Assembly (NCBI GenBank): GCA_026014495.1
Contig: JAOZIF010000103.1
Location: 1-33,755 of the forward strand
Direction of reading: 5' to 3'
Source: Candidatus Bathyarchaeum sp.
Lineage (GTDB): Archaea; Thermoproteota; Bathyarchaeia; Bathyarchaeales; Bathyarchaeaceae
Length of the DNA: 33,755 nt
Shown here piece after piece: positions 3,189 through 27,248 of the stretch. Every line of letters begins with the position of its first letter. The stretch's first letter is position 1. Under the pieces are notes generated by a model, which saw only the letters and a list, made by a program, of their open reading frames with translations, had not been told where the DNA came from and ran no database searches. A program made the translations under genes and the position numbers.

Positions 3189-3998
3189 ATGAAAAATAGC
3201 ATAAAACTTTTTCCAGGAACCATTATTGGATTGATACTGGGAATTCTTGTGGCTGTGCCTCTACTGTATACAACTGTTGTGGTCGCCCCTATCACATCCT
3301 CAAGTAGTTCTGGGTTATGTGATGTTGAGATAGTGTATGCGTACCTTGAACGACAGAATACAACCGTGGTAACTGTTGGTTATGATGAAGATACTGGGAG
3401 ATCAATCACTGAAGAACTGGATGAACCAAATGTGCGAGCAATAGCTGTAATCAATGTTACACGTAATTTTGCAATAGTAACTCCTAGTATCGCTGAACTT
3501 TGGGTGTATCAAGTTGAGTTTTACACTGATAAAGGCAGCATTTCAAATGTAACTTACTACATGGGCGTTCTTTCTGAGGAGCCACCAGCGTTAAATTCGC
3601 TAGATGACCTTCATTCTTCACCTTTTCAGATAACAATGAATCAACTTATGAACTACTCTAGCTACATACCCGAAATATACAGCGGTGAAAACGGCGGAGG
3701 TGGAGTCTATACCTATTGGCCTATCGGTAATCCAGTTACTCAGTTTTTGCCAGCGGGTGACAACGATTGGGTTTCTGCTGTTGACACGTCCGAGACGATC
3801 TTCGTACGCGTGAAAGAGCTCGGTTGGATAGTATATGGTGATTCTACTGAGGTTGTTGTTCTACCTGAACCTAATGTCCTTGCGGATGTTCAACTGGACA
3901 TTTATAATTATGGATACCTGCATAACATTGGCATGTCTAATGAGCATCTAGCCGAAATTGAACTGCTTGACCCAGCACCATGGGATTTCTATGAATAA
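3189..3998 (+). CDS. Membrane-anchored exported protein, unknown function
   Basis: ATG at 3189 (ORF track extends to TTG 3171); N-terminal basic residues then a TM helix, Ser-rich linker, acidic beta-rich domain with several N-x-S/T sequons. Confidence 0.7.
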   Translation: MKNSIKLFPGTIIGLILGILVAVPLLYTTVVVAPITSSSSSGLCDVEIVYAYLERQNTTVVTVGYDEDTGRSITEELDEPNVRAIAVINVTRNFAIVTPSIAELWVYQVEFYTDKGSISNVTYYMGVLSEEPPALNSLDDLHSSPFQITMNQLMNYSSYIPEIYSGENGGGGVYTYWPIGNPVTQFLPAGDNDWVSAVDTSETIFVRVKELGWIVYGDSTEVVVLPEPNVLADVQLDIYNYGYLHNIGMSNEHLAEIELLDPAPWDFYE

Positions 3999-4025
3999 AT
4001 AGAACCATGAAATGAGGACAATACA

Positions 4026-4472
4026 GTGGCGAATGATGACAACACAGAGCTTGAGGGCACAACATTCACTGTGTACACCTACGTAGTCAAAGAAAACAAT
4101 CCTGTAGGTCCACGTGAAGTCATGCGAGGTGTGAACCTAAGTAGCCCCAGCGTAGCTTACAGGCATCTCCAAAAACTTGAAGATTTGGGCTTGCTAGAGA
4201 AGAACGCGGCAGGCAGGTACATCATAAAAGAGAAAGCAAAAATCAGTGGGTACCTGTGGGTTGGCAGAACACTGGTGCCCAGGCTCATTTTTTATTCCCT
4301 TTTTTTCACTGGATTATTGAGTGCAGAAATCGCCAGTGTTCTAATCCGTTATTTAACATATGGGCTGTTCCCTGATGTGCTTCTTGTTTATCTCACATTG
4401 ATAACTGCAATTGCTCTGATGCTGTTCTTGATTGAAGGGCTATCTTTGAGGAAAAAAGCAATCCTTGAGTAA
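4026..4472 (+). CDS. Winged-HTH transcription regulator with two C-terminal TM helices
   Basis: GPREVMRGVNLSSPSVAYRHLQKLEDLGLL is a wHTH (LexA-N/ArsR-like); hydrophobic segments LIFYSLFFTGLLSAEIASVLI and VLLVYLTLITAIALMLFLI. Confidence 0.8.
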   Translation: MANDDNTELEGTTFTVYTYVVKENNPVGPREVMRGVNLSSPSVAYRHLQKLEDLGLLEKNAAGRYIIKEKAKISGYLWVGRTLVPRLIFYSLFFTGLLSAEIASVLIRYLTYGLFPDVLLVYLTLITAIALMLFLIEGLSLRKKAILE

Positions 4473-4571
4473 CCTGTACATCCTGTAAAACTCTTTTTTT
4501 GTTCATTCTTCATAAATGTCTGTTTTGTAATAGTATATGCTGGATAGATAGGAAAAGGTGAATGTGACAAT

Positions 4572-5324
4572 TTGGTGAATCGGAGACGTCGATACCGTCG
4601 CGGGTACCCCGTTGCGGTTCTTGTAGGTTTTGAAGATACTCATGCGCTGTTGTGGCACATATTTAGTCGTGTAGTTAAGCCATCATTTAGGTTAGAGCTT
4701 AACGGAAAAAGAACAGACGAAAAGGTTTTGTACAATTTTCATGAATCAGTCATTGACGCCATAAAACCTGTGCTTAAAGAGGGAGTAAGAAGTGTTGTTG
4801 TTTCAGCTCCAGCAAGAACAACCTACGCCGCAGACTTTTTAGAGCACATAAAAAAACATCACATGTATCTGATTCAATCAAGAAGCACAAACAGAGCAAA
4901 TTTCGGTGAATTAATTGGCTCTGCGGATGATCAAATCAAGGTTGCTGAACTGGTTAAAACCACGGAATTCACGAAAATAATCGAGCAAACAACTTCTGAA
5001 GAAGCTGACCAAATTGTTGACAGTTTGGAGAAGCACCTTTATGGTTCAGGAGACAACTCTGTTGTTCTGTATTCCTTAAAAGAAATCGAAGACACAATCT
5101 ATGCCAGAGAAAAAAAGAAGTTAACACGAACAGAGTATCTGCTACTCACAGACAAGTATCTGTCAGAAAGTAAACAAAAGAGCCGAATTCACAGACTGCT
5201 ACAGATAGCTAAGAACAAAAAAGTGAAAACACGTGTAATAGACGCTGAGACTTCAGCAGGCAACAGGGTCAACCAGTTTGGAGGCATAGTTTTCTTTTCT
5301 AGACCAAACTATTCAACTGCGTGA
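4572..5324 (+). CDS. Pelota/aRF1-like protein (middle and C-terminal domains only)
   Basis: VRSVVVSAP, VLYSLKEIE, EYLLLTDKYL and KTRVIDAETSAGNRVNQFGGIVFF parallel Pelota domains 2 and 3; N-terminal Sm-like domain absent. Confidence 0.7.
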   Translation: MVNRRRRYRRGYPVAVLVGFEDTHALLWHIFSRVVKPSFRLELNGKRTDEKVLYNFHESVIDAIKPVLKEGVRSVVVSAPARTTYAADFLEHIKKHHMYLIQSRSTNRANFGELIGSADDQIKVAELVKTTEFTKIIEQTTSEEADQIVDSLEKHLYGSGDNSVVLYSLKEIEDTIYAREKKKLTRTEYLLLTDKYLSESKQKSRIHRLLQIAKNKKVKTRVIDAETSAGNRVNQFGGIVFFSRPNYSTA

Positions 5325-13850: not shown

Positions 13851-14012
13851 TTCTGTTCCCCCTGTTTGTACAAACACGAATTATTATTTAAATATTTTTC
13901 CAAATTATGCCTAATTGTTATATTATTTTTAAAAAACATTCTTATTATATGCCATAATAAACAATTAATGGAAAGCGGTTGGCACCACGTTGTTGAGATG
14001 TGAAATAATAAA

Positions 14013-14036
14013 CGATATAAATGTACATTCATATCG
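14013..14036. promoter_or_regulatory. ModE-type operator (24-bp near-perfect palindrome)
   Basis: CGATATAAATGTACATTCATATCG matches the CG-N-TATATA-N6-TATATA-N-CG ModE consensus geometry; abuts TATA-like TTTAAAAG (minus strand, 14037-14044). Confidence 0.75.
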
Positions 14037-14157
14037 CTTTTAAATTTTTCGTGCGATGATAGTCAACATCTCAACTGAATTTACGTCTATTTATTCTACT
14101 ATTCTGTTCCCTTACAATATGCAACCATTATTTTATATGTGCAACATGTTATCTAAT

Positions 14158-14775: not shown

Positions 14776-14796
14776 GGATACAAAAGCATCAACAAA
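14776..14796 (+). repeat. 21-bp dispersed repeat, copy 1
   Basis: GGATACAAAAGCATCAACAAA, identical to copies at 18172 (-) and 19708 (+); followed by CTCCT as in copy 19708. Confidence 0.95.
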
Positions 14797-14895
14797 CTCC
14801 TAAAAACAAGCAAAAACAGGATAGTTACAGCCTCTTTTTTCGGCGGTAATGTTTTTACTTCTGGTCGTCCTTTTTTTGTTTAGAGGCAATGGGAC

Positions 14896-15300
14896 ATGAA
14901 AGTTTTTAGTGAAAAAATTGTTTTTTCGACCAAAGGTGAAATAGAACTCAAAGACTTGACTGGAAAGGTTCATGAAGTTGTACGAACGTCTGGAGTTAAA
15001 AATGGGTTAGTTCATGTTTTCGCGCCACATGCAACCGGGGTACTCATTTTAACTGAACATGAGCCAAGCTTAGATAGTGATGTTAGAGATTTTCTTGAAA
15101 AAATAATTCCCAAGCATGGCGGATACCGTCATCAATCAAATGCTCACTCACATTTAAGATCGATGCTTCTAAGTCCAGACAAAACGTTGCCCATCATGGA
15201 TGGTCAAGCAATATTTGGCACATGGCAGTCTCTTGTCTTTGTGGAGACAGACGTATACCCCAGACAACGAACAATCATCATGCAGGTACTCGGAGAATAA
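14896..15300 (+). CDS. yjbQ: YjbQ/UPF0047 family (secondary thiamine-phosphate synthase)
   Basis: VHVFAPHATG, EHEPSLDSD, NAHSHLRS, FGTWQSLVFVE. Confidence 0.9.
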   Translation: MKVFSEKIVFSTKGEIELKDLTGKVHEVVRTSGVKNGLVHVFAPHATGVLILTEHEPSLDSDVRDFLEKIIPKHGGYRHQSNAHSHLRSMLLSPDKTLPIMDGQAIFGTWQSLVFVETDVYPRQRTIIMQVLGE

Positions 15301-16005
15301 ACGTTCACTAACGAAGCTTATATGCCAGACAAACGGGCGGTAGTCATAACCAAAAGTTAAGGCGTCAAAAAACAAGAAATCAACTGCAAAACTGTATTTT
15401 ATGCCTCTTGCTAATCAAACATTGTCTGTTTTACAATGATTCCAGAATGTTTTAGAAAAAAATATCAAATAACAAAGAATTTGTATGCTTGAAATAAAAC
15501 GAAACATAACGAAAGTCAGCAATATTTACATTTATATGACAATTTTTAAGCATTCAACTATTTATCATGTGCTTTTTTAACGCATCAATTCCAGTTGTTT
15601 TATGTTTTACCTTAATTAGAACATCAAAACTGGATTGTAATCAAACGAAAAACGACGAAAAAAGTCCAGAACAGTAAACCGAAATGTAAGGGTGACAATT
15701 CCACTTTGTTTGTGACTGGATGGCATATGCAAATGCATACTATTCAATCAAAGCAACCAATAACGGTGACGTTCTCTAGATTTTTTTGACACTCAGAACC
15801 CAAAAATGAAGAGAATGTGCCAAAAGTGTCAATTCAAACAAACTCATTTTACAACATACTGTTAAATAATATTGGCTTTCGTCACTCTTCGGCTAATTTA
15901 GAAAAACAAATCGTTTGAAAAAATCAGGTGACGACTAGCCAGTTATGAATTCAATAGAAACATCTTATTGAAGACAGCTTTTTTTCAGGAAAATTCATGC
16001 TGGAA

Positions 16006-16161
16006 TAAACTAATTTGTTTTTGACTGCAATTTATTCACACTTCTGTGCGGCATATTAGGAGACTAATAGAAGTTCATTGTTGAAAACTAGCTTTTTTTC
16101 TGAAATTTTTGCACTGCACAAGTTTGATGTCAAACATTCACACGTATATTATTACATAATA
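16006..16161 (+). repeat. Approx. 150-bp intergenic element, copy alpha (45-bp core at 16064-16108)
   Basis: Core CTAATAGAAGTTCATTGTTGAAAACTAGCTTTTTTTCTGAAATTT is 43/45 identical to the reverse complement of 27136-27180; flanking blocks are also conserved. Confidence 0.85.
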
Positions 16162-16227
16162 GCTCTGGTCCTCAGCACGTAATCTACTATGTATATAAAC
16201 TTCGAATGCAATCGCAAAATTTTTTGG

Positions 16228-17409
16228 CTACCATTTCATGTGTATTTCAACTGTGTCACCGTCTTCAAGATTAAAAGCTCCGCCAACCTTTTGTGGACTA
16301 AAACGTAGCCTTTTTGACCATACTTTAGCATATGAAAACTGGTTATAAAAATCAGTGTGAATTCGCTTAGCCAAATCAAACACTGTGGACCCTTTTTTGA
16401 TTGTAAATGGCCGCATAGAAGCATCTTTCTTATTCGGCTCCTTTGTGTAAACCCGAATAATATCCAGCATACCAAATATTTCAGACCCCAATTTATCTAT
16501 GCCCTCCTTTGTTGTACATGACACAGCAACAACATTCATTTCTTTTCCCACAACCTTTTTCAGCTGCTCCAACCGCTCAGCAGCCAATGGATGATCCATT
16601 TTGTTAGCCAAAATCAGGGCAGGACGATACGCCTTTCCCTCAAAAATTGCCTCTTCAACATCATCAAACGTAGCTTCGCCACGAATCTTAATCGTAGCAT
16701 CACGTATTCCATAGCTTTTCATAAGTTGCGCCAAATCCTTAACAGTACAATCAACCAGCTTCCCTAAAACAATAAACTTCAATTTCGCACCCATATGCTT
16801 CTTCTCAATGTCGATACGAGCCTTGGGCTTTTTTGTAAGAATCTTTGACTTCTCCAGTTCTTTAGAAATAAGCAAAAATTGTTCAACTGGATTCTGAGAC
16901 AAATCCACCATCAAAACTAAACCGTCAGCGTTTCTGGCAGAGGTCAAAGTCTGCAATCCCCATGCACCACCCTCTGAAGAACCCTCCATAAGTGCCGGAG
17001 TTTCAACCATCTGAAGCTGCAGGTCTTGATAATTGAACATCCCTGGTGTTTGCTCGGTCGTGGTGTACGGATAATTCAATACCGCCACTTTTGAGTTAGT
17101 TAAAGTAGACAACAGACTGCTACGCCCAACATTGGTTGGACCCAAAATAACAATTTGTGCATCACCCTCTTTTTCAACAAATACTCTGGGTCCAGTTGCT
17201 ACACCGGTTCGCTTCTGTTTTTTGTCTTCAATTTCCTGTTTTAGCACTGAAATCTTTCGCTTGACTTGAGCCCGAAGATTTTCTGTACCTTTATGCTTAG
17301 GAAAAAGACCCATGAACTCTTGAAGCTTCTTAATTTTTTCCTCAGGGTTCCTAGCCAAAGACGCCTCACGATATTTCTGTTTAGCCTCTGCAGGAAGATT
17401 AGCGGGCAT
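16228..17409 (-). CDS. DRG/OBG-family GTP-binding protein with TGS domain (degenerate G1/G3)
   Basis: Start MPANLP at 17409; GPTNVGRSS, NYPYTT, ETPA, ANKMD; C-terminal TGS (IRVYTKEP..LEDGDTVEIH). Confidence 0.88.
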   Translation of the reverse strand: MPANLPAEAKQKYREASLARNPEEKIKKLQEFMGLFPKHKGTENLRAQVKRKISVLKQEIEDKKQKRTGVATGPRVFVEKEGDAQIVILGPTNVGRSSLLSTLTNSKVAVLNYPYTTTEQTPGMFNYQDLQLQMVETPALMEGSSEGGAWGLQTLTSARNADGLVLMVDLSQNPVEQFLLISKELEKSKILTKKPKARIDIEKKHMGAKLKFIVLGKLVDCTVKDLAQLMKSYGIRDATIKIRGEATFDDVEEAIFEGKAYRPALILANKMDHPLAAERLEQLKKVVGKEMNVVAVSCTTKEGIDKLGSEIFGMLDIIRVYTKEPNKKDASMRPFTIKKGSTVFDLAKRIHTDFYNQFSYAKVWSKRLRFSPQKVGGAFNLEDGDTVEIHMKW

Positions 17410-17585
17410 AGAGCAGTCATCTAGATAGTAACTCACAGTGGAAAGAGATATTATCTTTTCGAAAAATCGATGACTAAACAGTCTTTTAACAGGATATAGC
17501 CAACGAAAATCAGTTAATTAAAATTGAACCAAACACATCATGATTATGGTAATTAATGATTCTCACGACAAGGGGAACACAAAGC

Positions 17586-18155
17586 ATGAAGAAATCACAC
17601 GTTTTTGACCCCAGACACATTGAGGCACTAGAATCAAAAGAAAGAACAGCTTGGCAAAATCCAGAAGAAATAATTCCAATTCTAAACCTTAAACCTTCAT
17701 ATATCGCAGCTGATTTGGGGTGCGGAACAGGCTACTTTACGATTCCACTTTCTCGCAAAGTCAAGAAGGTCTACGGTATCGATGTTCAAAATGAAATGCT
17801 AGCTTTTCTTGACCAAAAAATTCAAAAACAAAAAATAAGAAACATCGAAACTATACTCGCAAAAGAAAACAAGATTCCACTCCCAGACGAAAGCATAAAC
17901 TTTCTGCTGACAGTAAACACACTCCACGAATTCCATGACCGAGACGCGATACTCAAAGAAATAATACGAGTAATAACAACACAAGGACAAGTAGCCGTAA
18001 TCGATTTCAAAAAGGAAAACATGAGTTTTGGTCCTCCTAACTCAATCAGGGTTTCTAAAGAGAAATCAATTAGACTCTTCGAGAAACAGGGCTTGACCGT
18101 TTTAGACTCACATACCCTCAGGTACCATTATCTTATAGTTTTTGGGAAAAAGTAG
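17586..18155 (+). CDS. Class I SAM-dependent methyltransferase
   Basis: ADLGCGTGYF motif I, VYGIDVQ, NTLHEF; likely ATG at 17586. Confidence 0.88.
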   Translation: MKKSHVFDPRHIEALESKERTAWQNPEEIIPILNLKPSYIAADLGCGTGYFTIPLSRKVKKVYGIDVQNEMLAFLDQKIQKQKIRNIETILAKENKIPLPDESINFLLTVNTLHEFHDRDAILKEIIRVITTQGQVAVIDFKKENMSFGPPNSIRVSKEKSIRLFEKQGLTVLDSHTLRYHYLIVFGKK

Positions 18156-18171
18156 TGTTCTATGAAAGAAA

Positions 18172-18194
18172 TTTGTTGATGCTTTTGTATCCAC
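18172..18194 (-). repeat. 21-bp dispersed repeat, inverted copy (23-bp match to copy at 19706-19728)
   Basis: TTTGTTGATGCTTTTGTATCCAC is the exact reverse complement of 19706-19728. Confidence 0.95.
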
Positions 18195-18416
18195 CATGAT
18201 TGAGAAAAACTTGCATTCGTCTTTCATACGCAAAATTGATGTCATTGCTTACGTTTTCACCAATGTAATTTTTTTGTTTCTCATGAGATTTGCGCCAAAA
18301 ATAACCTGCTTTTGAGCTTTGATTTTGAGAGTAAGCCTTTGTATGCTGCCGCAAGTAGGCAAAACTAGCCACTTCTACCACGTATACCCAACGAATTTAG
18401 ACAATTTAGTGATGAT

Positions 18417-18453
18417 GGTGCACTATAAAATACATATTATTTTATACATCACC
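18417..18453. other. 37-bp imperfect palindrome upstream of the recombinase
   Basis: GGTG-cac-TATAAAATA-catat-TATTTTATA-cat-CACC. Confidence 0.6.
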
Positions 18454-18511
18454 AAGCATTGAATATCCCTCAAGACGGTGTTTTAGGACACATCACCCAA
18501 AAATTATTTCA

Positions 18512-18533
18512 TAACAGTTCTCATCAACTGTCA
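18512..18533. promoter_or_regulatory. 8-6-8 inverted site A, candidate recombinase binding site, abutting its TATA box
   Basis: TAACAGTT-CTCATC-AACTGTCA; TATA-like TTAAATA at 18537-18543. Confidence 0.5.
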
Positions 18534-18579
18534 ATATTAAATAGAACCAACAACCATAAACAATTGAGCGCACCTAAAA

Positions 18580-19275
18580 ATGGATGACCTGACGCTACCT
18601 GAAGTCGAAACAGTAAGAAAAAGAATAGAAACAGCAACAAAAAAAGAGGCAAAGTTTTGCTTAATGGCAGCATACCTTTTTTGTGCAAGGGCATCCGAAG
18701 TAATAGGGGCAACAAACCGCTATGACCTAACACATAACCAAACTGTAGCACGCGGACCAACCGGACAAGACGTCAAAATTGAAACGTTTGAAATTGGGGA
18801 CACAAAAACAGAAGCTGCAATCTTTACAGTTAGAACTGCGAAACGTGACGGAAAAATAAGAAAAATCGCATTACCTCTCGAGAAAAGTTTTGAACCCTGG
18901 ACTGAAAAATTATACACATATTATATCGATCACGGAAACGACAAAGTCTTTCCATTCACAAGACAGAAAGCATGGGATTATGCACAAGAAACTTTCGCAG
19001 GCTTAAGCTACCCCATAGACAAATACAACATGTATGACACAGAAGGTCTCAAACCAAAACCGATCAAGGCACACATGAAACCATTCAGAACTCACGCCCT
19101 GCGCCACTTACGGGCAACAGAATTAATTGAAACATTCGGATTTACAGGTTTTGACCTTTCTGTTTATGGTGGTTGGACCCTGCGCAGTATGGTCGGTGTC
19201 GGTTCAGCTATGTCTAGATATGCCCACTTAGACTGGCGAAGATACTTCCCCAAATTACTTAAGAAAAGGTTTTAA
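18580..19275 (+). CDS. Tyrosine recombinase, catalytic domain only
   Basis: Complete catalytic set: R (ARASE), K (TAKR), HxxR (HALRHLR), W (YGGW), Y (RYAHL); 231 aa, first Arg at about residue 37. Confidence 0.9.
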   Translation: MDDLTLPEVETVRKRIETATKKEAKFCLMAAYLFCARASEVIGATNRYDLTHNQTVARGPTGQDVKIETFEIGDTKTEAAIFTVRTAKRDGKIRKIALPLEKSFEPWTEKLYTYYIDHGNDKVFPFTRQKAWDYAQETFAGLSYPIDKYNMYDTEGLKPKPIKAHMKPFRTHALRHLRATELIETFGFTGFDLSVYGGWTLRSMVGVGSAMSRYAHLDWRRYFPKLLKKRF

Positions 19276-19411
19276 CTTATTCAAAGAAGTCGTGTTTTTA
19301 GCATCAATTTCCCGATGGTTTCTATGTAATGAGTTTCTGGAATGTGACCTTGTTAAAATCAGCATCTTAATTGAAGAAAATATACAATTTAATGTTAAAA
19401 CAATGGTGATG

Positions 19412-19433
19412 TAACAGTTTCGTCAAACTGTTA
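19412..19433. other. 8-6-8 inverted site B (perfect 9-4-9 palindrome)
   Basis: TAACAGTT-TCGTCA-AACTGTTA; arms match site A at 15/16 positions. Confidence 0.55.
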
Positions 19434-19670
19434 GATTTGAAGGCTACTTATAAAAAATCAGTAAATTACACAGAACGCAAACCCAGCCTTCAATATCTTT
19501 CAAGTCAACTCTGAGCATAAATTTCAGTTCCAAAAATTTTGAAATGTTCCACAGCCAACAATAAACACTCATGATTTTTACACAAAAAAGGTAGACCTGC
19601 AAGACACAAAAAGCACTACTGTTCACACCATTTTTTAGGACAAAACACATTACAGCATTAAAAAATAACG

Positions 19671-19702
19671 TTTTGAGGCCTCAAAAGAGATGCACTGCAT
19701 CT
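19671..19702. repeat. Two adjacent perfect palindromes directly before the 21-bp repeat
   Basis: TTTTGAGGCCTCAAAA (19671-19686) and AGATGCA-C-TGCATCT (19688-19702). Confidence 0.8.
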
Positions 19703-19705
19703 AGT

Positions 19706-19728
19706 GTGGATACAAAAGCATCAACAAA
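19706..19728 (+). repeat. 21-bp dispersed repeat, right-hand copy
   Basis: GTGGATACAAAAGCATCAACAAA (core 19708-19728), followed by ACTCCT. Confidence 0.95.
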
Positions 19729-19861: not shown

Positions 19862-20545
19862 ATGACAGACAATGTTGTGGTGACTTCTTCATTGTGCAGG
19901 CAATTTGAAATTGACGGCGTAGTTGTTAAAGCGCTACAAAACATAGACCTTACTGTTGAGGCGGGCGACTTTGTTTGTATATATGGTCCATCAGGTGCAG
20001 GAAAGACAACTTTACTCAACTTAATCGGTGCATTAGACAAACCGTCAACCGGAAAAATTCTTGTCTTTGATCACGACCTTAGAACGTACAACGAAGATTT
20101 TTTGGCTACTTTCCGCGCAGCACATATCGGATTTGTTTTTCAGTCATATAACCTAATTTCAACTCTAACAGCAAGTGAAAACATCTCTTTTGCCATGGAG
20201 CTAGCAGGATGGAAAAACAACCGAATTCACGAAAGATCAGAAAGCTTGCTTAAAATGGTTGGTTTAGAACAGCGTAAAAACCATTTTCCTGCGCAACTTA
20301 GTGGAGGCGAACGCCAAAGAATAGCATTTGCTCGTGCATTAGCAAACGAGCCCCCCCTTCTTCTCGCAGACGAACCTACAGGAAATTTAGATATCGAAAC
20401 TGGTTTAGAAATTATCCGAATTCTTGAACAGATTAAAACTGAAGGCAAAACAGTTATCGTTGCAACTCACGACGAAAAGTTACTGAATTTAGCAAGTCGT
20501 TCTTTATGTCTTAAGGATGGGAGGCTCACAGACAAACTTGAGTGA
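19862..20545 (+). CDS. ABC transporter ATPase, LolD/MacB type
   Basis: [43 protein letters not shown]. Confidence 0.92.
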
Positions 20546-22403
20546 AATCAATTTTCCGATAAAAGATTTGTCAAGAAGAAAACAGCAGACAACTTTGACT
20601 ATTATTGGTTTGACTGTAGCCACAGCTGCAACAATTTTTTTGGTCCTTTTTGGAAGTAACTTGGGTTTTGAAATCGGTTTCATCACTCAAGGAGGGAAAT
20701 TAACGAGTGGATTTTATAACATATTTTCTCAATTTATTCTGATTGTCAGCATTCTAAATGTTGTAACAGGTCTCATTATAACATCATTTCTTGTTCAATT
20801 GACAATGTCTACACGAATACGAGACATTGGGGTGATGAAAGCATCAGGTTGTTTAAGCAGACCAGTTTTTGCGTATTTTTTTACAGAGTTGTCTTTGATG
20901 GTGTTAGTCAGCACAACAGCAGGAATAATTATCGGAATTTCACTTTACTATTGTTCTACAATTTTTCTGAGCATTGCAGGTTTTTCTATTTCACAAAACC
21001 TTGACATAACCGCAATTCTTGTTGTTTCACTGGTCACAATTGTTTTTTCTCATATTTTTGGAGCGTTACCTATAAAAAAAGCATCAAAAGCAAAACCAAT
21101 AGAAGCTATGTCTCCCATATACGAAGAAGAAACAAACGCAACAGTGGGACATAAAGTTCCTTCAAAACTTGGGTTTACATTTAAAATGGCGTACCGCAAT
21201 TTGCTTCGTAGACAATCCACAACAATTCACGCAATAATCTGCTTCACAGCGGTTTTAACCTTGATTACAGTTACAATCACGGGTGGACTGATCGCCAACA
21301 ACACCACTTCAACTTACGTTGAACGCGCAATAGGTAGGAACGTTGTTCTAGTGGGACATCCAAAAATCACAGAACGTTACGTTAATTTACTCTCACAATT
21401 TTTTGAATATACACCAAATGAACAGTTCAATTATAATGATTCAAGTTTTGCTATTTCAGGGCAGTTGGTAAGCGATTTGGGGACAATTCAAGGTGTAACT
21501 ATTGTTGATCCGAGATTAGTGTTAGAAACATCAGTTAGAGAAAGCCTTGGAGTAGTACTTGACCCCGTAGAAAAAACAGAAGCTATACTAATTGGGAGCA
21601 ACCGAACAGATACAGCACTGGTTGTAGGGGTACAACCTGAAAACATCATTAACGACTGGCTATTTTTTGGCGAAAAACTAGGGGTAAACGAGACAAATGT
21701 TGCAATGATTGGTGATACATTGGCCGTTAACATGTTTGAGGATGCAACAAATCAAAGAATCAAAATTTTTGATTATAGCGAGTCTCCTTATGACATAGTT
21801 GGGGTATGTGTTGACACTCTGAACAACGGAAAAGTCGTGTACATGCCTCTAGAAACAATGCACAAAGATACAGGACAATCGGGTTACAATCTTGTTTTTG
21901 TTCAAATTGATTCATCAAACAATCCACAAGTTTTTGACCAAATAGAAAAAATGGTAAACGACGAGAATTTGAATGCCATTGAACTTAATTTGGTTTTGGA
22001 TAAGCACATTAATTTCTTGAACAGCATCTGGTCATTGATTATGTTTTTGCCGCTTTTCACGTTGGTAACTGCTGTAGTTGCTCTTTTCAGTTATATTACA
22101 TTGTCAATTTCAGGTCAGCAACATGAATTTGGTATTATGAGAGCAGTTGGAGCCAAACAAAAAACCATAATTAAAATCATTTTTTGTCAAGTGACATTAA
22201 TTATCTTAGTCAGTGGTATGCTTGGAATTTTTGCTGGGTCATCCATTACTTTCGAGTTATTAATCCCTGACCCTGTAATTTCGCAATCAACAATTAGTTC
22301 TGCATACACTTTGTTAATCGCAATAGTGGGGCTACTCTGTGTGTTTAGTCTATATCCAGCAGTGAAAGCTGCAAACAAAACAATTATCGATGCCATTTCG
22401 TAA
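20538..22403 (+). CDS. FtsX/MacB-family ABC permease
   Basis: Likely TTG start overlapping the ATPase stop; two FtsX-type TM modules (RIRDIGVMKASG; QQHEFGIMRAVGA) and one large extracytoplasmic loop. Confidence 0.88.
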   Translation: MSEINFPIKDLSRRKQQTTLTIIGLTVATAATIFLVLFGSNLGFEIGFITQGGKLTSGFYNIFSQFILIVSILNVVTGLIITSFLVQLTMSTRIRDIGVMKASGCLSRPVFAYFFTELSLMVLVSTTAGIIIGISLYYCSTIFLSIAGFSISQNLDITAILVVSLVTIVFSHIFGALPIKKASKAKPIEAMSPIYEEETNATVGHKVPSKLGFTFKMAYRNLLRRQSTTIHAIICFTAVLTLITVTITGGLIANNTTSTYVERAIGRNVVLVGHPKITERYVNLLSQFFEYTPNEQFNYNDSSFAISGQLVSDLGTIQGVTIVDPRLVLETSVRESLGVVLDPVEKTEAILIGSNRTDTALVVGVQPENIINDWLFFGEKLGVNETNVAMIGDTLAVNMFEDATNQRIKIFDYSESPYDIVGVCVDTLNNGKVVYMPLETMHKDTGQSGYNLVFVQIDSSNNPQVFDQIEKMVNDENLNAIELNLVLDKHINFLNSIWSLIMFLPLFTLVTAVVALFSYITLSISGQQHEFGIMRAVGAKQKTIIKIIFCQVTLIILVSGMLGIFAGSSITFELLIPDPVISQSTISSAYTLLIAIVGLLCVFSLYPAVKAANKTIIDAIS

Positions 22404-27080: not shown

Positions 27081-27248
27081 TATTATAGTCTACTATCTGG
27101 CGTGAATTTTTGGTATCAAACTGTTGTGGTGATTGAAATTTCAGAAAAAAAGCTAGTTTTCAACAATGTACCTCTATTAGGATACTAATATGCGGATGAT
27201 TGTGTGAATGACTAGACCCGTTGATTTTTTTGAAACAAACTGGTTTAA
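27081..27248 (-). repeat. Approx. 150-bp intergenic element, copy beta (core at 27136-27180)
   Basis: Reverse complement aligns with 16006-16161. Confidence 0.85.

Follow-up and report, generated by a model that had tools for sequence, protein, structure and literature searches.

A probable fim-like inverton built on an 18-bp site conserved in Bathyarchaeia

What is the role of three identical 21-bp sequences that cluster around a small tyrosine recombinase gene in an archaeal genome? The question is raised by a contig of Candidatus (Ca.) Bathyarchaeum sp. (JAOZIF010000103.1, assembly GCA_026014495.1), whose 33,755 nucleotides are referred to here as the window. The original prediction saw a shufflon-like switch in which the recombinase acts on all three sites. 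Its description of the sites themselves is accurate: GGATACAAAAGCATCAACAAA occurs exactly at 14776-14796 (+), 18172-18192 (−) and 19708-19728 (+), and the whole window holds no further match at three or fewer mismatches; the chance expectation, from 100 dinucleotide shuffles, is 0 matches. The second and third copies belong to a perfect 23-bp inverted repeat with arms S2 (18172-18194, −) and S3 (19706-19728, +), which bounds a unit of 1557 bp (18172-19728) and encloses the recombinase gene (REC, 18580-19275, +), as had been noted. The first copy, S1 (14776-14796, +), is a solo site 100 nt upstream of yjbQ. The comparisons presented here suggest an answer in which 18172-19728 is probably an inverton, similar to the fim switch, whose recombination site is an 18-bp core conserved across an order of Bathyarchaeia.

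Natural inversions with breakpoints at the sites are found both within the genus and in other genera. (Handles beginning with G denote genomes of relatives, L loci or metagenome contigs, and C contigs of the host genome; f9 and f11 are other families of the order.) A metagenome scan with REC yielded 37 informative contigs of the genus, 35 of them in the arrangement of the window and two (L118 and L141) flipped. A comparison of L118 with L119 gives minus-strand alignments for the flanks, which extend to and include the 18-mers (3592-3609 and 5106-5123), and a plus-strand alignment for the inner region 3668-5024. With collinear flanks on either side, the REC segment of L118 has the opposite orientation to that of L119 and L116, as has that of L141 to that of L126, the last two contigs coming from the same sample and being only 79% identical. 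The predicted inversion of the recombinase cassette is thereby observed. Assemblers commonly finish with k-mers longer than these 18-23-bp repeats, and the flip is present in two different species, so an assembly artefact is unlikely. Outside these contigs, both flanks of G131 and G152 align on the minus strand up to the sites, and the inner 250 bp align on the plus strand, a clean repeat-bounded inversion. Across 13 species, the orientation of the segment relative to the adjacent yjbQ, read from the order of its motifs, is split 7:6.

The segment that inverts is older than REC. Positions 18195-18490, which carry the motifs TCACCA, GTAGGCAAAAC and GGTGAT..GGTGA and an AT-rich, TATA-like stretch at about 18424-18447, align with the ~0.3-kb region between the sites in REC-less genomes and in other genera. 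Four genomes that lack REC (G011, G013, G020 and G024) keep S2 and S3 ~300 bp apart around a region homologous to 18195-18490, which indicates that REC is a ~1.2-kb insertion into an older 0.3-kb segment; the 1557-bp unit is this ancestral switch segment plus the inserted REC module. Other genera of the family likewise have an inverted pair of cores around a homologous 0.25-0.33-kb segment with GTAGGCAAAAC and GGTGAT..GGTGA, and thirty distinct inverted pairs, 200-420 bp apart, are found in relatives. A short frame at 18195-18381 (− strand; …KVASFAY…SQNQS.K…F[RK]T.IS) is partly conserved across genomes, with indels and no clear start. A structured RNA in the 0.3-kb segment is unlikely, as RNAalifold gives −7.7 kcal/mol with no covariation, and Rfam and tRNA scans of the window found nothing.

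The site itself is conserved far beyond the locus. The part of the 21-mer that is invariant across relatives is its first 18 nt, GGATACAAAAGCATCAAC, with the last 3 nt variable. This core occupies 14776-14793 in S1, 18175-18192 in S2 and 19708-19725 in S3, and its consensus is G[G/T]ATAC-ARAAG-CATCAAC. It is present in all 24 sampled genomes of Ca. Bathyarchaeum and in 106 of 151 genomes of the order, where each genome carries between 1 and 10 copies; a reversed-pattern control gives almost no matches. Among 185,579 species genomes, the core is nearly restricted to Bathyarchaeia. Sites are retained in genomes without REC. In families f9 and f11 they are common close to housekeeping genes that recur as a set, and no recombinase adjoins them. 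The f9 loci L082-L089 have clusters of up to six sites in ~9 kb, spaced roughly 0.6-3.2 kb apart, whose neighbors are an Hjc-like resolvase, Tsr3, macro-domain, MobA-like and ABC/FtsX genes in an order that varies between genomes.

Counted across the host genome (2.19 Mb in 196 contigs), the site has six copies, three of them outside the locus: an exact one at C103:1597 and two with 1 mismatch each at C29:35 and C72:217. The original prediction had all copies intergenic and the two + copies sharing flanks on both sides. The three window copies are intergenic as placed, but the C72 copy (C72:217-234, L006; core variant GGATACAGAAGCATCAAC) lies within a TrmB-family gene, where it encodes the peptide FVDASVS. 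Of the flanks, the C-rich CTCC downstream of the core is present in most sites, but the upstream TCTAG is not a general feature. In the TrmB-gene copy, the 18 nt show no change at any of their six synonymous positions in five genomes, while the flanking codons vary, which argues for constraint at the nucleotide level.

Where the core does vary, it varies mainly in its center. In a set of 324 distinct sites, both G and T occur at position 2; most other changes affect positions 7-11, and a smaller number position 17. This pattern is present both in uniform-mismatch searches and in the compiled table, the latter selected on intact arms and hence biased. In nine metagenome contigs checked and in G021, the center of S3 is changed to NTTT (GGATACA-NTTT-CATCA[A/C]C), with the arms kept and S2 canonical; the altered center stands at the S3 position of L105, L108, L111, L112, L115, L121-L123, L131 and L038. 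Such a change would fit a central crossover region, where heterology between the two sites would lock the switch, making these loci candidates for naturally locked switches.

Two minimal recombinases are associated with the inverted pair. REC, 231 aa long and consisting of a catalytic domain only, is judged a divergent tyrosine recombinase by its motifs, its match to the PHROG_1 integrase (2.9e-11) and its modeled fold. These uphold the original identification of the open reading frame, but the match to Pfam PF00589 is below the threshold (15.2 bits against a cut-off of 27.1; E = 0.019). Twenty-nine homologues all share the catalytic residues R37, K88, H172, R175, W199 and Y214. The AlphaFold2 model has a pLDDT of 83, and its top Foldseek matches are solely Cre, Flp, TelA, XerH and topoisomerase IB, with a probability of about 1.0, yet an E-value of only 4e-3 and template modeling (TM) scores of 0.45-0.50. 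REC is present in 15 of 24 genomes of the genus and has a ratio of nonsynonymous to synonymous substitution (dN/dS) of ~0.04-0.06 against its orthologues, which is purifying selection.

The second enzyme, c3 (~195 aa), adjoins the inverted pair in REC-less Bathyarchaeum genomes and in other genera, at a distance of 22-430 bp in most genera sampled and ~850 bp in one. Its motifs (R51, K78, H138 and R141 invariant, W162 and Y174 nearly so) and its predicted fold, nearest to XerH (E = 4e-6, TM 0.72), mark it as a minimal tyrosine recombinase; matches to PHROG integrases reach 1e-7, and Pfam scores of 18-21 bits are sub-threshold. A close kinship between REC and c3 was considered and rejected, as BLASTP aligns the HxxR..GW stretch alone (E = 0.13). 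Within the genus, REC and c3 are mutually exclusive at the locus (~15 REC+ against 4 c3+ loci), and the REC+ reference genomes yielded no c3. This exclusivity suggests that the two are functionally equivalent; it probably reflects one replacement event and hence counts as a single observation. In L148 (G079:C137:608-1616, family f11), a c3-like gene is enclosed by two inverted copies of the variant GGATACAGAAGCATCGAC with a distance of 990 bp between them, an arrangement that repeats the architecture of the window independently.

Two further observations were made beside c3. The contigs L276 and L278, from two samples and with identical c3 genes, both end 26-29 nt past the distal site; this may be an assembly-graph branch at the repeat, which is suggestive and no firm proof. 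In L094:2320-2459 (G056) and in L275, the intact c3 is separated from the nearer site by an inverted fragment of a c3 3' end, as if an earlier rearrangement beside the switch had left a trace.

These elements can be assembled into a model of how the inverton would work. The ancestral unit would have consisted of the minimal c3 gene, an inverted repeat, the ~0.3-kb segment and a second inverted repeat, often with yjbQ as a neighbor. In most Ca. Bathyarchaeum, the host included, c3 has been lost, and an unrelated minimal recombinase, REC, lies inside the segment together with palindromes of its own. Strand exchange within the 18-bp cores of S2 and S3, presumably catalyzed by a tyrosine recombinase, would invert 18172-19728. 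The ancestral enzyme would be c3; at the host locus REC is the sole candidate for the invertase and could well be the enzyme, though we hold this for somewhat short of likely, and otherwise exchange would depend on an enzyme acting in trans. The AT-rich, TATA-like stretch, which precedes the REC start by ~130-155 nt at the D-motif end of the old segment, may act as an outward promoter. In the assembled orientation it would read, with REC, toward an ABC/FtsX exporter; in the flipped orientation it would read toward a methyltransferase gene (MT, antisense) and a DRG-type GTPase gene. A swap of upstream regions by rearrangement, as originally proposed, is plausible.

Several observations weigh against an inverton of this kind. 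The dyad symmetry of the core is weak (GATAC-AAAA-GCATC), and its 4-5 bp center is short for the overlap region of a tyrosine recombinase. Both orientations are known from comparisons between genomes and contigs, and a single orientation is shared by all ~19 reference loci of the genus and by the 35 contigs mentioned above, which suggests that switching may be rare. Neither REC nor c3 is found near the sampled f9 sites, and c3-like genes occur in just 2 of 35 f9 and 3 of 34 f11 genomes. The solo sites (S1, C103, C29 and the TrmB-gene copy) are conserved as strongly as the paired ones, which inversion alone leaves without explanation: the role of a recombination-type site within a TrmB gene, and of the f9/f11 and solo sites, is not accounted for by an inversion switch. 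Finally, the palindromes of REC differ from the 18-mer, and its more distant homologues occur without the 18-mer, so REC may act on other sites.

This last point leads to the strongest alternative, in which the switch is real but REC is a passenger, the remnant integrase of a mobile element that acts on its own palindromes or is autoregulated through them, and the 18-mers are flipped by a trans-acting recombinase, c3-like or other. The palindromes speak for it. The first, pal-1 (18512-18533, 68 nt upstream of the REC start), has the 8-6-8 form TAACAGTT-N6-AACTGTCA, and it is found in every REC+ locus and in no REC-less locus, with a variable spacer. The second, pal-2 (19412-19433, downstream of REC), is a perfect 8-6-8 palindrome, TAACAGTT-TCGTCA-AACTGTTA, which is invariant, spacer included, in all REC+ loci and absent from REC-less ones; the general form of the two is TAACAGTT-N6-AACTGTTA. 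The REC homologues of 54-71% identity lie among small open reading frames without family hits, in what looks like a provirus-like setting, and have upstream palindromes of different sequence (at −66 in L040 and L041 and at −210 in L042). The original assignment of the sites to this recombinase finds no support in these comparisons, since the sites are spread over the order, persist where REC is missing and are not found with its distant homologues. The host genome also encodes five to six further tyrosine recombinases, and no serine recombinase or resolvase-family gene was found in it; inversions occur in genera that lack REC altogether. A REC that is only a passenger fits less well with the absence of c3 from REC+ reference genomes, given that flipped REC+ contigs exist, and with the strict exclusivity of the two genes at one locus, which suggests functional replacement. 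Against it also stands that REC is intact in 13 of its 15 genomes, where it is under strong purifying selection. On balance, a passenger REC is a genuine possibility, but not the outcome we expect.

A different answer is that the 18-mers are mainly binding sites of a conserved DNA-binding protein, as regulon operators or architectural elements, and that the inversions are incidental by-products of inverted repeats. This would explain the solo sites that stand 35-220 nt upstream of yjbQ, the Hjc-like gene, ABC/FtsX, the Tsr3 operon and c0 (a winged helix-turn-helix plus Mrr_cat gene) in families where no recombinase lies close by, as well as the one within the TrmB gene; sites also lie within a few kb of the single-copy c0 in most genomes with both places listed. 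The identity of 18 of 18 positions over more than 300 sites, in contrast, goes beyond the usual conservation of operators, and the orientation of the sites relative to neighboring genes is inconsistent. Minimal recombinases adjoin or occupy inverted pairs in two families. Moreover, homologous recombination does not routinely act on repeats as short as 18-23 bp, and the orientation of the segment is split 7:6 nonetheless. Binding sites with incidental inversions are thus an improbable explanation. That the 1557-bp unit is an insertion sequence or a miniature inverted-repeat transposable element, with a tyrosine recombinase as its 'transposase', is suggested by its 23-bp terminal inverted repeats around a recombinase gene but is hardly credible for a single-copy unit at one syntenic position in all genomes, with no target-site duplication, with repeats and an inner 0.3 kb that remain without REC, and with solo sites that share no common flanking homology.

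A more ambitious version of the inverton reading would cover the remaining sites as well. It would be an order-wide, multi-locus recombination network on one 18-bp site, combining phase switching of the 0.3-kb inverton within populations, as programmed phase variation, with inversion and reshuffling of housekeeping blocks (yjbQ, Hjc, ABC/FtsX and the Tsr3 operon), by interchangeable c3 and REC, the latter captured from a provirus-like element. This version is put forward tentatively and is rather unlikely to hold in full.

A comparison of the inverton with known systems places it closest to the fim switch of E. coli (FimB/FimE, with a 314-bp fimS). Both have a ~0.3-kb segment between short inverted repeats, an adjoining recombinase of ~200 aa without an N-terminal core-binding domain, and neighboring genes read from either side. 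The present system differs in being archaeal, in having a core of 18 bp (9 bp in fimS) that is reused at 1-10 places per genome, in recombinases without membership of the FimB/FimE group at the sequence level, in the location of the window recombinase inside the segment, and in a promoter that is only putative. Hin and Gin share with the window a recombinase gene inside a segment possibly inverted by its own product, but they are serine recombinases with a Fis-dependent enhancer, whereas both candidates here are tyrosine recombinases. The invertible promoters of Bacteroides, served by a master invertase (Mpi/Tsr), are similar in that one repeat is used at several loci and the enzyme is not needed at each of them, but they belong to another domain of life; here, many sites are solo, and the nearby genes are of housekeeping type rather than for surface polysaccharide. 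Archaeal Xer/dif (XerA) shares the tyrosine recombinase chemistry, and the fold of c3 is nearest to XerH/XerA. However, dif is a single-copy, imperfect 11-6-11 palindrome (PMC2958812, PMC11840125) of the form TAA-N6-TTA, for example TTTTGATATAATGTACCTTATATGACAA in T. kodakarensis (PMC11840125), whereas the 18-mer is multi-copy (six in the host) and weakly symmetric, and c3 and REC have no N-terminal domain. A shufflon (Rci/sfx), in which several inverted sites in the 3' portion of a gene exchange alternative C-termini, was rejected: the segments hold whole unrelated genes, and S1-S2 rearrangement was not observed.

Chromosomal invertons have been "only minimally investigated in Archaea", with 12 putative cases in 42 long-read data sets, none in Bathyarchaeia (PMC10028968), and in a 2021 review of archaeal tyrosine recombinases, phase variation appears only as one role of such enzymes generally, with no phase-variation invertase described (PMC8371274). 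The present locus combines a defined site, two candidate minimal invertases, natural flipped alleles, altered-center variants that are possibly locked in one orientation and a relative in enrichment culture, Ca. Bathyarchaeum tardum (strain M17C-01, genome G005), whose sequence CP122380.1 has sites at 1,206,247-1,206,264 (−) and 1,207,722-1,207,739 (+). Taken as a whole, this makes programmed inversion directly testable in an abundant and largely uncultured class of sediment archaea, and the minimal recombinases with their 18-bp site could serve as compact recombination tools.

The genes around the inverton, assigned by Pfam, are from left to right a TOBE/HTH (helix-turn-helix) regulator, yjbQ, the DRG GTPase, the methyltransferase, REC, an ABC ATPase and an FtsX permease. 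The left flank (16228-18155) comprises the DRG-type GTPase (16228-17436, −) and the variable methyltransferase (17556-18155, +); G018 and G001 lack the methyltransferase and have S2 ~60 nt upstream of DRG. The right flank (19862-22403, +) comprises the ABC ATPase and an FtsX/MacB-type permease, both running in the direction of REC; G003, G004 and G008 lack these two genes, and there S3 is directly followed by the next gene, c0. S1 has an identical position throughout the loci of the genus; in other genera, it is the pair member nearer to yjbQ that stands there. The order TOBE>S1>yjbQ<DRG is constant in ~19 reference loci and in 14 metagenome contigs that span S1 and S2, with no S1-S2 inversion among them, and no S1-S3 deletion product was seen in reference loci or metagenome contigs. 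S1 is therefore a third copy of the site at which no exchange is detected. Gene order across relatives thus bears out one part of the original proposal, a flipping S2/S3 segment, and not the others, namely three-site switching with inversion between S1 and S2 and excision of 14.8-19.7 kb.

Other functions were considered for the 18-mer and rejected. A role in the replication origin or terminus does not agree with orc1/cdc6 being unlinked to the sites or with the flat sampled GC skew of the complete G005 genome, and the 18-mer is unlike what we take to be the form of origin recognition box (ORB) elements. The c0 protein is not a convincing site-binding partner, being single-copy in 119 of 151 genomes, many of them free of sites. 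An integron, brought to mind by gene stops ~16-20 nt from a site (e.g., MT and f13), would require features that were not found: there is no IntI, no attC structure and no arrays. The c4-ABC-FtsX-c0 inversion between G121 and G138 is not a site-bounded event, as homology runs past one site. Nor is the 18-mer a ModE operator, since the TOBE/HTH gene has a separate palindrome, CGATATAAATGTACATTCATATCG, at 14003-14046, which resembles a ModE-box-type operator, is distinct from the 18-mer and stands between this gene and a WtpA/ModA-like ABC operon. The window also contains a pair of 58-nt intergenic inverted repeats (16051-16108 and 27136-27193), 91% complementary and 11 kb apart.

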